This document shows, one piece after another, positions 1 through 38,850 of a DNA stretch of 64,000 nt (its first letter is position 1; every line of letters begins with the position of its first letter). A model generated the notes under the pieces. It saw only the letters and a program-made list of their open reading frames with translations, did not search any database and was not told where the DNA came from. Source of the stretch: Lingula anatina (Eukaryota > Animalia > Brachiopoda); NCBI GenBank assembly GCA_051362555.1, contig CM120640.1:62001-126000 (forward strand). The letters run 5' to 3'. A program made the position numbers and the translations under genes.

Positions 1-147
1 GTGTGTGTTTGTGTGTGTGTGTAACACATGACTATCATTGAATCCTATTGTGCTAACAAAGATACCACTATAAAATGGTCATAAACAGATAGCTAGTAGT
101 ATTTACTGGGTCTGTATGGATATGAACAGAGAGCTAGTAGTACTTAC

Positions 148-1691
148 TGGGTCTGTTTAGGAACATGGCTGAGACTTTCCTGGGCAGGCATTTGTTTGTT
201 TGTTTTCAGCACACAAGGCGCAAAAATAATGGCAAGACTATTCACAGACATTTTGTTGGATTCTTCATGGAAAGCCACCCTGCAAAATGTGATGTGCATA
301 GCATAAGAATAAGCACTTGCTATATTTCATCTATACACTGTTAAACCACAGAAATTAATGCTCAAAGAGAGAAAGAATGCTGTTGTCCATCAAAAGTATG
401 CTGTTTCATGATGACCAGAACCATAATGCTGTAATACATAAGAATAAGCACTTGCTATATTTCATCTATAAACTGTTAAACCACAGAAATTAATGCTCAA
501 CGAGAGAAAGAATGCTCTTGTCCATCAAAAGTATGCCATTCCATTATGATCTGAACCATAATGCTGTAATACCAGGTCAGTTCATTTGTCTGCTTGAAAC
601 ACTTAAGCTTAACAATGAGTTTCACTCTATACAGTCATTCTGCATTATTCACTTTGTTTCATACCCCTAGGTTAAGGCTTTCCATGCTTCCTTACCTAGC
701 TAAATGAAAGATGAGTCTTTCAAAGAGGTCAAAGTTGTGCTTTGGTAGCCTTTCAATCACAGCATACAAGGCTTGGGTGCAGTCTTTATCATCATGGGAG
801 TCTGGAAAATAAGGAACAATGATGATATTTATTGTGAGTCTGAAATCCAAATTTGTTCAGTAGATTTTACACACATACGGTCTTGCACGCGCTCACACGT
901 ACATGCACACACACACATAGAATGCTATGTTTGGCTTACCTGTAGCCTGAAGAAAGTCATCATACAGCTCAAACGCACACACACACACACACACACACAC
1001 ACACACACACACACATGTGCACACATACACAGACAGAATGCTATGTTTGGCTTATAATTACCTGTAGCCTGAAGAAAGTCGTCATACAGCTCAAACGTTA
1101 GTAATGGCTCCGGTAATTCTCTTAAGAACTGCTTCAGACCATATGTTAGCACGTGGATTTGGTAGTTATCAAAGTCTATACCATCTGGATCTGAAGATTG
1201 GAAACAAAAACACTGTCTTCACTATTCACTAAATAAAACATTCTATAGTTAAACTGACAATAACTTCAAAATTAAATAAATTCCAATGTATCTTGGAATC
1301 ATTTTTTTTTTCTAAGCTGAAAACAGAATGAAAAACAATCAACAAACTCTAACCAATGATGTTAATTTAAAATTTTAAATACTAAGTGTGATCTTTACCA
1401 GCATTAATTGCCTTGACCAGTTGTTTTGTTTTCACAGCAGCTCCACTCTTCCTGTACACCCCCTCTGTGTATAATATTAAATTTTAAATACTAAGTGTGA
1501 TCTTTACCAGCATTAATTGCCTTGACCAGTTGTTTTGTTTTCACAGCAGCTCCACTCTTCCTGTACACCCCCTCTGTGTATAACCCCTTCATTTCTATGG
1601 CTGTAATCAGGCGCTCTATTACTGGGGGCACCTTTACTCCTCGCTGTAGTAAATGACACAGCTGGACTCCAAATATACCAGATACCTCCTC
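148..1691 (-). CDS. MYO9: Myo9 RhoGAP exons (1508-1691, 1062-1190, 696-801, 148-279)
   Basis: [24 protein letters not shown] (arginine finger), [27 protein letters not shown]. Confidence 0.93.
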
Positions 1692-37600: not shown

Positions 37601-38850
37601 TAAATATATTTTTAAAATGGGAATACTTCAAAACACATGCATAGACAAGCATACTAAATTAATTTCTGATGAAAGTGCTAATTTTATATTTCAGAAATAA
37701 ACAATGTACAAAGATTACACTATACATGCACGCACACACACATGCACACTCATACGTATGAATTACCTCCAGTACTGGTCCAGCACCAAGGACGGTCTGC
37801 TCCACCCCGCTCACATGCACGCACACACACACACTCTTACGTATAATTTACCTCCAGTACTGGTCCAGCACCAAGGATGGTCTGCTCCATCCCGCTCACA
37901 TGCACGCACACACACACACATGCACACTCTTACGTATAATTTACCTCCAGTACTGGTCCAGCACCAAGGATGGTCTGCTCTACTCCACTCCCATGGAGTC
38001 CTTTCTGGCTGAGTGCCGTGAGATGATGCAGCAGTAGGTTTGTACTCTCTGTCTTTCCACTGCCACTCTCCCCTGAGATCACTATACACTGGTCTGATTT
38101 CTCATGTAACATTGTATGATAAGCAGCATCTGCTATGGCAAATATATGGGGAGGTAAGTCACCCAACCTTCGATTCTGGTACATGTTCACATATTTTGGA
38201 TTGTAAATAGGAAAGAATTTAAAAGGATTAACAGCTATGAGAATGGATCCTACATATGTGTATATGTTTCCATTACTAAATCTAAGTTTCAAATTTTCCA
38301 TTAGTGTCACTTCATTCAAATCTGGGAGATTGCACAAATCAGGATAATCCTTTCCACTTCTCTGTTTTAAAAATGAGCTAAGGAAAGTATCCACTGGGTT
38401 GGGTTCAGCATATTCCACCCAAGACCCTGTCCTACTGGAAGTTCTGTCCCCTTTTTTCCGTAGATAAAATCTGTACTCTGTCACCTGACTGGGGGGGTCC
38501 AGTGTCGAGGGCTGGATATCAGCAGCCGCCATCGGCCTCGGCCATAACAACTGGATCCTGACTGGCGTTTCATTAGGTAACAATCTCCTTTCTTTACACA
38601 ACTGTCCACCAGAGACAAAGACTTCAGCTAACTCAAAATGTTCTGCCTTTCCCAGAGCTAACTTGGCCACTGCAATCCTGACCACCTCCAGGGCCTGTGT
38701 TGTCTTTTCAGCCTCCACACTGGTGAATTCTGTCTCCTGGCTTAGCGGCCCCATGTGGACGCGCACCATAAACGTCTCCAGGCTCAGTCTCCGGCCTTGA
38801 AGTGTGTCAGGAGGCGAGGCCACTGGACGCCTGGGATACATTAGATCCAT
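148..38850 (-). CDS. MYO9: Unconventional myosin class IX (RA + motor + IQ + C1 + RhoGAP), multi-exon, 3' end beyond left edge of window
   Basis: Phase-consistent GT-AG exon chain read on the minus strand: 37945-38850, 33661-33755, 31627-31689, 31107-31206, 30819-30919, 30538-30592, 29551-29628, 29043-29132, 27417-27530, 25818-25952, 25278-25541, 24188-24278, 22938-23039, 21286-21370, (20979-21026), 19745-19945, 17621-17660, 17357-17461, 15049-15129, 14650-14760, 14120-14242, 13816-13965, 13202-13563, 12376-12513, (12025-12063), 11470-11518, 10411-10578, 9479-9644, (9025-9132), 7572-7661, 6541-6866, 5609-5725, 5195-5428, 4874-4979, 1822-1904, 1508-1691, 1062-1190, 696-801, 148-279. Motifs: P-loop GESGSGKT, switch [10 protein letters not shown], switch [18 protein letters not shown] motifs, C1 zinc finger, RhoGAP GVYRKSG. 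This domain order is diagnostic of class IX. Confidence 0.95.
303..571. repeat. About 135-bp intronic tandem duplication
   Basis: CATAAGAATAAGCACTTGC...CCATAATGCTGTAATAC occurs twice. Confidence 0.88.
1822..4979 (-). CDS. MYO9: Myo9 C1 zinc finger split over exons 4874-4979 and 1822-1904
   Basis: [14 protein letters not shown]....[14 protein letters not shown] spacing of a C1 domain; phases match across the intron. Confidence 0.92.
1941..4912. repeat. 96-bp tandem array, about 31 copies, spanning a Myo9 exon end and donor
   Basis: Unit is about 39 nt of C1 exon end plus 57 nt of intron beginning GTAAGA. Confidence 0.95.
5990..6565. repeat. 46-bp tandem array, about 12 copies, donor-spanning
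   Basis: CCTTACCTTGTTAAATAATAACTTGCTCATTGTCTACAAACTACTT. Confidence 0.92.
9269..9472. repeat. (AG)n microsatellite, about 100 units
   Basis: Pure AG run directly after the donor at 9478. Confidence 0.97.
11511..11928. repeat. 52-bp tandem array, 8 copies, acceptor-spanning
   Basis: Unit contains TTGTAG|GATAAGAC on the minus strand. Confidence 0.92.
12151..12457. repeat. About 110-bp triplication of exon end plus donor
   Basis: Three copies of ACTTACCTGGACCCTGGACTGATAG...GAAGGAA. Confidence 0.92.
12895..13188. repeat. 46-bp intronic minisatellite, about 6 copies
   Basis: ACCAGTATAAACAGATGGTTGCCATGACAAC..GACAC. Confidence 0.9.
13202..13965 (-). CDS. MYO9: Myo9 neck exons with IQ motifs (13816-13965, 13202-13563)
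   Basis: [43 protein letters not shown]-type repeats. Confidence 0.9.
14330..14667. repeat. Degenerate 45-55-bp array, donor-spanning
   Basis: TATTCACCTCAAATGTGAGTCTGTACATAAAAAGCAGCAGTAATTG variants. Confidence 0.85.
15630..16480. repeat. 22-bp minisatellite, about 38 copies
   Basis: CCAAACAGTCCATTCTCTCTTC variants. Confidence 0.93.
18462..19310. repeat. 37-bp minisatellite, about 17 copies, interrupted by a MITE
   Basis: TAACAGATTAACACACCTCCTCATATCCAGCATATAT. Confidence 0.93.
19067..19281. mobile_element. MITE, PIF/Harbinger (Tourist)-like, copy 1
   Basis: Inverted ends ATTCCCA.AGATT(T)AGATCAATC; TAA duplicated on both sides; interrupts one unit of a 37-bp minisatellite. Confidence 0.85.
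21768..22947. repeat. 44-bp tandem array, about 27 copies, derived from a donor junction
   Basis: CTCCAGCTTTACTTCTACCATCACAACACACAGCCATGTTATAT. Confidence 0.92.
23066..23406. repeat. About 33-bp minisatellite, about 10 copies, just upstream of an acceptor
   Basis: TTTCACCTGTCTGGAGATGACCAACACCCAGACA. Confidence 0.9.
24420..25295. repeat. 45-bp tandem array, about 19 copies, donor-spanning
   Basis: CTACCTACCTGTGTCTGATAATTGACATTGTTTATCCTATGTTAT. Confidence 0.93.
25278..25541 (-). CDS. MYO9: Myo9 motor-domain exon (relay / actin-binding region)
   Basis: [18 protein letters not shown]...LLDEECNFP...[15 protein letters not shown] acceptor and GTAGGT donor. Confidence 0.93.
26273..26439. mobile_element. 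Short MITE with CAGGGGCGGAT / ATCCGCCCTTG ends (hAT-like termini)
   Basis: Terminal inverted repeat is visible; flanks CATGA / CATAA are only an imperfect 5-bp duplication. Confidence 0.6.
26745..27498. repeat. 88-bp tandem array, 8 copies plus a partial, about 93% exon-derived
   Basis: 82 nt of motor exon plus GTAATA. Confidence 0.94.
27819..28733 (+). mobile_element. Helentron-associated non-autonomous element (HINE / DINE-1-like)
   Basis: Subterminal inverted repeats GGATTCCCC ... GGGGAATCC, 3' hairpin ACTGGCTTAAGCCAGT, CTAGTT end, T-rich insertion site, internal TGACCTTGACC..TTTTCAAGGTCA motifs. Confidence 0.65.
29585..29858. repeat. 91-bp triplication, acceptor-spanning
   Basis: Acceptor TTACAG|AAGTCAGAG recurs with exon starts at 29628, 29719 and 29810. 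Confidence 0.9.
30010..30565. repeat. About 75-bp tandem array, about 7.5 copies, donor-spanning
   Basis: Contains the exon end CACCTG(G/A)GAAATATAGAATTTAAAAAG|GTTTGC. Confidence 0.9.
33084..33349. repeat. G-rich minisatellite of about 31 bp
   Basis: GGGTGGGGGTGGAGTTGGGTTGAGTGGGGGT repeats. Confidence 0.92.
33930..34545. repeat. 48/55-bp minisatellite, about 12 copies
   Basis: GGACCTTGAAATGGGCCCCAACTCTGGGACCACAACTAAAAGTTT. Confidence 0.92.
35880..36192. repeat. 78-bp tandem repeat, 4 copies
   Basis: AAAACTAGGAATGAAGTGGATTAAT...CTCTCTACAGTC. Confidence 0.9.
36838..37225. repeat. 96-bp tandem repeat, 4 copies
   Basis: CATGTTCTCTATTTCTC...TTTACAGACACCAA. Confidence 0.92.
37735..37980. repeat. 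Triplication of exon end plus donor of the first Myo9 coding exon
   Basis: TTACCTCCAGTACTGGTCCAGCACCAAGGA at about 37763, 37848 and 37941. Confidence 0.9.
37945..38850 (-). CDS. MYO9: Myo9 first coding exon: N-terminal Ras-association domain and start of motor (P-loop)
   Basis: ORF 37930..38853; ATG at 38850 with an in-frame TGA just upstream; CKERRL..IQLLWPR (RA domain), [26 protein letters not shown]; donor GAG|GTAA at 37944; acceptor AG at 39013-39014. Confidence 0.93.

Follow-up and report, generated by a model that had tools for sequence, protein, structure and literature searches.

Mirage-type tandem arrays at the exon–intron junctions of Lingula Myo9 and their excess at donor sites

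The Myo9 gene and its arrayed junctions

The window, a stretch of 64,000 nucleotides analysed as a whole, carries the gene for Myo9 together with RNF115 and ARL15. Our Myo9 model lies on the minus strand (148..39012), with its ATG at 38850, and the gene continues beyond the low end of the window. The model has 38 coding exons and a CDS of 5,627 nt (1,875 aa) with no stops; its introns are GT–AG throughout, and seven of them were confirmed as RNA joints. The translation is 51% identical to Pomacea Myo9 over 1,950 alignment columns. Median intron length is 282 bp once arrays have been collapsed.

Inspection of the DNA had suggested that many Myo9 junctions lie within tandem repeats of exon end, splice site and adjacent intron. 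All 17 listed exon edges are genuine edges in our model and all 17 have extra junction copies, which places 14 of 38 donors and three of 38 acceptors (17 of 76 junctions) in repeats. The repeat units are 41–122 bp long, are present in 2–31 copies as assembled and are mutually unrelated, which supports the view that each was duplicated in place. Most of the sites are tandem arrays as described, but at 148, 1062 and 7572 the repeat is a duplication into two copies with an interruption, covering 1.5–1.8 periods, rather than a clean array. The extra copies do always lie on the intron side; this holds by construction whenever splicing uses the site contiguous with the exon.

All of these repeats are on the minus strand. 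The donor at 4874 (array 1939..4914) has a period of 96 and 31 copies, with GT intact in 30 of 30 extra copies, and the donor at 22938 (21763..22947; period 44, 27 copies) has amplified a variant, so that 25 of 26 extras lack GT. Further donor arrays are those at 25278 (24410..25299; period 45, 20 copies), 6541 (5987..6569; period 46, 13 copies), 27417 (26762..27502; period 88, of which about 80 bp is exon, eight donor copies) and 30538 (30019..30564; period 75, seven copies, GT intact in three of six extras). The donor at 14650 (14346..14667) lies in a degenerate array with a period of about 45–52 and four to five donor copies. Fewer copies are found at 12376 (12149..12461; period 109, three copies), 37945 (37724..37995; period 85, three copies), 29043 (28942..29069; period 50, two to three copies) and 1508 (1363..1583; period 109, two copies, microhomology of about 3 bp). 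The interrupted duplications comprise donor 148 (84..156; period 41, two copies), donor 1062 (912..1097; period about 122, two copies, with a CA run inside) and donor 7572 (7441..7584; about 57 bp repeated at a spacing of 87). The filler of this last repeat resembled a small transposon, a likeness that blastn did not support. The acceptor arrays are at 6866 (6819..7025; period 102, two copies, the extra acceptor being in frame and open if used), 11518 (11511..11929; period 52, eight copies, AG intact in seven of seven extras) and 29628 (29580..29859; period 91, three copies).

A blind lag detector run over positions 1–39012 called 27 arrays, 15 of which overlapped junctions (12 donors and three acceptors). 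Relative to the curated set it missed 1062, where the CA run breaks the repeat, and ended its call at 22938 2 bp short. A junction-centred 16-mer test likewise gave 12 of 38 donors and three of 38 acceptors, with no matches in any of three shuffled-sequence controls. Breakpoint overlaps measure 1–7 bp in the clean arrays, and such short overlaps are common to junction and intronic arrays. The two classes are also similarly homogeneous (TRF match 93.3% for junction and 91.4% for intronic arrays, P = 0.31).

In the neighbouring genes RNF115 and ARL15, repeats were found at none of nine donors and none of 10 acceptors (three of the 10 acceptor positions being slightly off), in line with the initial inspection; the difference in arrayed donors between these genes and Myo9 has a Fisher P of 0.04. 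We also considered whether the intronic array at 23064 conceals an alternative exon. Among 31 homologues, the 13 whose motif matched lack any insertion at this point, and off-model tblastn matches were confined to the junction arrays; this candidate was rejected.

Donor excess and the fate of the extra copies

Junction overlap was compared with a null in which arrays were collapsed and then placed at random, donors and acceptors being counted apart. In the curated set 14 donors lie in arrays against 2.9 expected (P = 1.2e-7), and in the blind set 12 against 2.6 (P = 2.3e-6), a statistic that describes a single gene chosen for its extreme look. For acceptors the corresponding values are three observed and 2.8 expected. 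Because acceptors are at chance while donors are over-represented, the excess is confined to donors and is not junction-wide. Expressed per available start, the array rate relative to deep intron is 9.4-fold at donors (CI 4.0–22.2) and 2.1-fold at acceptors (0.4–7.7). Arrays do exceed random placement, as proposed, but for donors only, and a general junction bias is not supported. The premise that junctions are a small share of the gene's length fails, since junction-crossing positions account for about 20% of the tolerated placements after collapse (5.7 expected among 29), and the overall excess is about threefold. When the intron target is limited to 300 bp the excess has P = 0.03–0.07, and at 200 bp P = 0.2–0.3; the donor excess thus loses significance if only about 200 bp per intron is taken as target.

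Wholly intronic arrays are not enriched near exons (three of the 12 lie within 100 bp of one, where 3.8 would be expected), so the excess requires a breakpoint within the exon. Arrayed donors resemble the other donors of the gene in exon length and exon rank. A search for orthologous loci in metagenome contigs gave 121 pattern matches, none of which was confirmed.

The choice among copies was assessed with raw RNA runs labelled as the same species, over a stretch that contains five of the 17 arrayed junctions. At 25278 the first donor is used (12 and 15 reads in two runs), as it is at 29043 (4, 4 and 15 reads in three runs). These two of the 14 arrayed donors are those with distinguishable copies, and at both the expectation that splicing selects the outermost donor was borne out. 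For 30538/29628 there was no joint among those listed. A joint from 25951 to 26800 (six reads, run X18) was considered as use of the last donor copy of the 27417 array, but we rejected it as ambiguous: on its longest side it spans 60 bases, whereas about 80 exon bases are common to the copies. Seven reads placed on the first 27417 copy are equally ambiguous.

GT is kept in 83 of 113 extra donors and AG in 10 of 10 extra acceptors, seven of them at 11518. If used, only two of the 113 extra donors and one extra acceptor copy would leave an open reading frame, the remaining 111 donors giving a frame shift or a stop. Given this, and the mutation of GT in four of 14 arrays against 3.0 expected, the extra donors look neutral. 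The suggestion that the arrays supply alternative splice sites is not supported by these numbers, and unambiguous use of such a site was not seen in the limited RNA. The predicted inflation of introns is evident: junction arrays contribute 8.3 kb of a total of about 33 kb. In practical terms, protein-to-genome alignment yields false extra exon matches (up to 30 for one exon) and short RNA reads become ambiguous over the arrays, so that they can mislead gene annotation.

Known counterparts

The Myo9 arrays are 'mirage' minisatellites, a repeat type already described in amphioxus and, as F7-type VNTRs, in human. The amphioxus cases include Adh3, the globins BflGb6 and BflGb9, troponin C and PGBD5, and clusters recur within single genes (PMC3087553, PMC3902484). 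Their units are 10–160 bp long and span exon–intron boundaries, 5' and 3' alike, and their origin was called unclear (PMC3087553). GT or AG is kept in many but not all copies, and normal mRNA is still produced (PMC3087553, PMC3902484). Amphioxus mirages are further described as differing in length between haplotypes, as evolving in concert while their boundary units diverge and, in Adh3, as unstable in somatic tissue (PMC3087553). The Myo9 units similarly span boundaries at both donors and acceptors, fall within this size range and only partly keep the dinucleotide. Unlike the amphioxus examples, they form 17 arrays in one gene of a lophotrochozoan host, with a donor-only excess measured against a placement null; the passages on amphioxus mirages in PMC3087553 and PMC3902484 contain no placement test of a donor excess.

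Five human VNTRs, all at donors, are described in F7 IVS7 (37 bp), CBS IVS13, 6-16, lamin B2 and PDGF, and F7 minigenes splice from the most upstream donor of an identical series, the downstream pseudo-donors being able to work but losing to the first (PMC1557585). In human and Myo9 repeats alike, the donor lies in the opening unit and is followed by identical pseudo-donors; the most upstream site dominates in the human genes and is the one used at the two Myo9 donors with distinguishable copies. The human repeats differ in occurring once per gene, and CBS and 6-16 also splice at two pseudo-sites (PMC1557585), which was not seen in the limited RNA from Myo9. Variable internal tandem repeats at exon–intron boundaries in human segmental duplications share minisatellite length and position with the Myo9 arrays; in those duplicated genes the repeats alter transcripts or give rise to introns (PMC2812944), whereas Myo9 is single-copy and conserved, with its frame kept.

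In a literature search of incomplete coverage, mirage reports were found only for amphioxus and human genes, and none of the papers found compared donor and acceptor excess across a whole genome, both weak negatives. What is new here is the measured donor excess of about ninefold (CI 4–22), in one gene whose neighbours have arrays at none of nine donors. The repeat type is known and apparently harmless; with a dense case and a donor-only excess, mutation bias and selection can be told apart by simple counts across the genome and in populations.

Origin of the donor excess

We infer that the donor excess probably reflects a bias in where duplications start or a selective loss of acceptor copies. 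The account that we favour, tentatively, combines the two: the Myo9 mirages may be microhomology-mediated duplications that start with a bias towards exon edges and survive chiefly at donors, where splicing would take the first site. An ordinary microhomology-mediated tandem duplication would create a junction copy, more probably at an exon edge than deep in an intron, and later expansion as a variable repeat would follow, with unequal exchange altering copy number. Duplication input would be higher when one breakpoint is exonic, a plausible reason being that divergent haplotypes cease to be homologous where an exon ends. Downstream donor copies would then be silent, while upstream acceptor copies would intercept splicing and be partly purged. 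The arrays themselves would be functionless.

The counts at donors (14 against 2.9) and acceptors (three against 2.8) are consistent with this combination. X10, a DNA run from a different study and not marked as a possible source of the window, reveals that homology drops abruptly where exons end: among the 20 of 22 differences listed for its 778-bp contig against the window, at least 17 sites plus four gaps fall in a 276-bp intron and at least two sites in 399 bp of exon. The X10 haplotype differs from the window at 29715–29896, and X10 may stem from a distinct lineage and not be an allele from within one population.

Several points sit uneasily with the favoured account. The gene tolerates acceptor arrays in which all 10 extra copies keep AG, which rules out a strong purge; acceptors exactly at chance demand that input and purge cancel; and the array-free junctions of RNF115 and ARL15 are not what a genome-wide exon-edge process predicts. 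The loss of significance under a short intron target and the choice of one extreme-looking gene weigh against it as well.

It is also possible, if less so, that transcription-coupled events at the exon-to-intron transition seed duplications exclusively at 5' splice sites. Candidate triggers would be Pol II pausing, U1 engagement, R-loop ends or a GC-to-AT step, and selection on acceptor copies would be unnecessary. A ninefold rate at donors with acceptors at chance fits such an origin, and the array-free donors of the neighbouring genes could track germline transcription. The GC drop from exon to intron over 30 bp is steeper at arrayed than at other donors (0.15 against 0.02, P = 0.0095), but this contrast is post hoc and one of about 12 comparisons. 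Donor strength does not differ between the two groups (7.8 against 7.5 consensus matches, P = 0.56), the 12 intronic arrays are not enriched in sense donor-like motifs (combined P = 0.20), and a literature search on such a mechanism found no paper. The more general proposal, that 5' splice sites are germline tandem-duplication hotspots in this animal through a putative transcription- or splicing-coupled process acting gene by gene at about nine times the deep-intron rate, we regard as doubtful; if true, splicing would shape the mutation spectrum and intron growth.

Pure survivorship, in which arrays arise uniformly, deep-intron arrays are deleted faster than exon-anchored ones and acceptor arrays are purged, is unlikely. 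In principle, a deletion taking out a junction array could not run on into the exon, and large indels between haplotypes are present in Myo9 introns. Junction arrays should then be older, but their homogeneity matches that of intronic arrays, although homogenisation may mask age; the protection predicted for exon-adjacent intronic arrays is not observed; and a ninefold difference in lifetime is required.

We think it distinctly improbable that Myo9 is a chance outlier, one extreme-looking gene out of a large scan. The lack of arrays in the neighbouring genes fits such an outlier, and the blind-set donor P rises to about 0.05 when multiplied by an assumed 20,000 genes, but the curated P survives the same correction (about 0.002), and the single-gene clusters of amphioxus are a recurrence of the pattern (PMC3087553, PMC3902484).

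A selected function, with stacked U1 sites or alternative sites kept to aid splicing, block early polyadenylation or yield isoforms, is very unlikely: most extra donors keep GT and three extra sites are in frame and open, but GT is as variable as other columns, the 22938 array amplified a variant without it, and nearly all extra donors would disrupt the frame. Least credible of all is an assembly artefact; exact copy numbers do derive solely from the assembly, but individual copies bear distinct substitutions, and in X10 the 88-bp unit of the 27417 array forms an 87-bp contig at a depth of 1,234, with a partial 91-bp unit at 170, compared with 52 for a single-copy contig. Such depths are only suggestive of copy number, and these short records fall below the bridging criterion. 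The resulting depth ratio of about 24 for the 88-bp unit, which is not a copy number, compares with 8.5 copies in the window.

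Junction arrays in the Myo9 gene

A class IX myosin gene, Myo9, fills the first 39 kb of the window on the minus strand. Its exon model, assembled from tblastn matches and splice signals, has 38 coding exons with every intron GT-AG, and encodes 1,875 aa with no stops; RNA joints support seven of the introns, and identity with Pomacea Myo9 is 51% over 1,950 columns. When the first exon was searched against proteins of 530-2000 aa, mollusc Myo9 proteins were the best among the 120 relatives listed (67-70% over that exon). A tree of 20 sequences, without chiton, annelid or brachiopod, puts the protein, with strong support, next to the bivalves, gastropods and cephalopods included but not among them; on this basis it is assigned to a lophotrochozoan. 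A 48-bp in-frame segment at 20979-21026, with good AG/GT signals, is likely to be an alternative micro-exon outside the model, and a short interspersed element occupies 26273-26436 in an intron; its copy number is very high (contig depth ~96,000), and many RNA reads have loose ends there.

All 17 sites at which the original prediction placed tandem repeats of exon edge, splice site and intron are exon edges of the model, and all 17 carry extra junction copies. TRF repeats overlap 13 of them and abut one more. Blind lag detection over 1-39012 gave 27 arrays, 15 of them on a junction; in three of three shuffled sequences, a simpler version of the detector found none. The curated set comprises 29 arrays: 14 at donors, three at acceptors and 12 wholly intronic.

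With units that span exon-intron boundaries, the Myo9 arrays are 'mirages', a type known from amphioxus. Such units are described there in Adh3, globins, troponin C and PGBD5, with splicing remaining normal and an origin that the authors call unclear (PMC3087553, PMC3902484). Donor-spanning VNTRs are described in human F7, CBS, 6-16, lamin B2 and PDGF, along with F7 minigenes in which the most upstream donor wins (PMC1557585). The Myo9 arrays are real, of a known kind and unusually dense.

Array placement against random expectation

For the placement null, each array was collapsed to one unit, and a unit of equal length was placed at random, except that it could neither lie entirely within an exon nor cross two junctions. 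Junction matches numbered 17 against 5.7 expected in the curated set (P=3e-6), and 15 of 27 against 5.2 expected in the blind set (P=2e-5). The predicted junction-biased excess held for donors (14 observed versus 2.9 expected, P=1e-7; blind set 12 versus 2.6, P=2e-6) but not for acceptors, which showed no excess in Myo9 under this null (3 versus 2.8, P=0.54). Per available start, arrays were 9.4 times as frequent across donors as within introns (CI 4.0-22.2), and 2.1 times across acceptors (CI 0.4-7.7). This donor-only excess is one quantitative addition to the known mirage type, and is open to genome-wide testing.

The junction P stayed at or below 4e-4 after unit padding and removal of microsatellites and likely transposon pieces. 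It was 0.003-0.008 with the target in each intron capped at 500 bp, 0.03-0.07 at 300 bp and 0.2-0.3 at 200 bp; small caps presuppose that duplications crowd near exons, and the wholly intronic arrays show no such crowding (3 of 12 within 100 bp versus 3.8 expected). For three intronic arrays (302-572, 12883-13185 and 23064-23406) the distance to an exon edge is 17-25 bp, and two of these lie just upstream of an acceptor tract; 1.3 arrays were expected within 30 bp (P=0.14).

The neighbouring genes, whose predicted translations fit their earlier names RNF115 and ARL15, have no junction in a repeat (0 of 9 donors, 0 of 10 acceptors), as had been claimed; Fisher's test against Myo9 gave P=0.04. 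The generality of the excess is weakened by these empty neighbours and by the choice of a single gene for its extreme look.

Splicing, array decay and independent reads

RNA reads from three runs carrying the same species label (X12, X15 and X18; 6-25% of each read, joint threshold three reads) were mapped to 24850-33070, which covers 4 of the 14 donor arrays and 1 of the 3 acceptor arrays. At 25278 the first donor joins the next exon in 12 and 15 reads from two runs, among the joints listed, and at 29043 the first donor was used by 4, 4 and 15 reads. At that threshold and sampling, no joint was listed to the second donor at 29043, nor from 30538 to 29628. Read placement among the donor copies at 27417 was ambiguous. 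Within the 25278 array (24850-25124), X12 has a mean sense-strand depth of 9.5 and the other two runs none; these reads, apparently not continuous with the exon, could stem from an allele of far greater length, from a second locus or from a piece of intron that is stable.

GT is kept in 83 of 113 extra donors. It varies in 4 of the 14 donor arrays, where the other columns would predict 3.0; at 22938 the amplified unit lacks GT. An open in-frame extension is predicted for only two of the 113. Use of the additional acceptor at 6866 would also keep the frame and leave it open, and the first three upstream acceptor positions tested at 11518, and likewise at 29628, would all introduce stops. Arrayed donors were no stronger than other Myo9 donors. 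Their exon-to-intron GC drop was steeper (0.15 versus 0.02, P=0.0095), in a post hoc test among about 12 comparisons. At the synonymous exon site 27486, 17 of 17 X18 reads have the array-copy base and X12 and X15 agree with the window; the X18 base may be an ancestral allele or the result of array-exon conversion.

The independent DNA run X10 comes from a separate study and is not flagged as a possible source. It covers the 25278 array at high depth. The 88-bp unit of the 27417 array reaches a depth of 1,234 and part of the 91-bp unit of the 29628 array reaches 170, whereas a single-copy contig has 52. Such depth is suggestive only, but the arrays are not peculiar to this assembly. Among the differences listed, X10 departs from the window by 17 substitutions plus 4 gaps within a 276-bp intron, and at two positions in 399 bp of exon. 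X10 and X18 have exon variants in common at 25305 and 25398 that neither X12 and X15 nor the window carries, which suggests that the species label covers two diverged lineages.

Origin of the donor excess, and other repeats

Clean arrays, junction and intronic alike, overlap by 1-7 bp at their ends as judged by eye, which is what microhomology-mediated duplication would give. Homogeneity is also similar (93.3% in 14 junction and 91.4% in 11 intronic arrays, TRF values, P=0.31). From this anatomy, microhomology duplication would have come first and repeat expansion afterwards.

We tentatively favour extra input at exon edges together with partial loss of acceptor copies, because first-site choice shields donors and not acceptors, and because the step in homology with X10 could localise breakpoints. 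Against this combination of edge input and acceptor loss, acceptor arrays are tolerated and the neighbouring genes are empty. Input specific to donors is possible, if rather unlikely, as the source of the excess. Pure survivorship fits less well and seems improbable. Chance, which gains from the selection of one gene for its extreme look, is more doubtful still. That the arrays serve a function fits poorly and is very improbable, and an artefact is scarcely credible given the array units at high depth in a different study.

Two copies of a ~215-bp MITE-like element, recognized by eye in the sequence, lie in opposite orientation at 19067-19281 and 42049-42262 and are 83% alike; the first splits a 37-bp intronic array at a TAA, and the second is located within a short duplication. 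In an RNF115 intron, a 33-bp array is cut in two by an insertion of 1,278 bp (51369-52646) that has short inverted repeats at its ends. Downstream of ARL15, inverted segments at 59536-59653 and 61041-61329, 95% identical and ~1.6 kb apart, are probably transposon ends.
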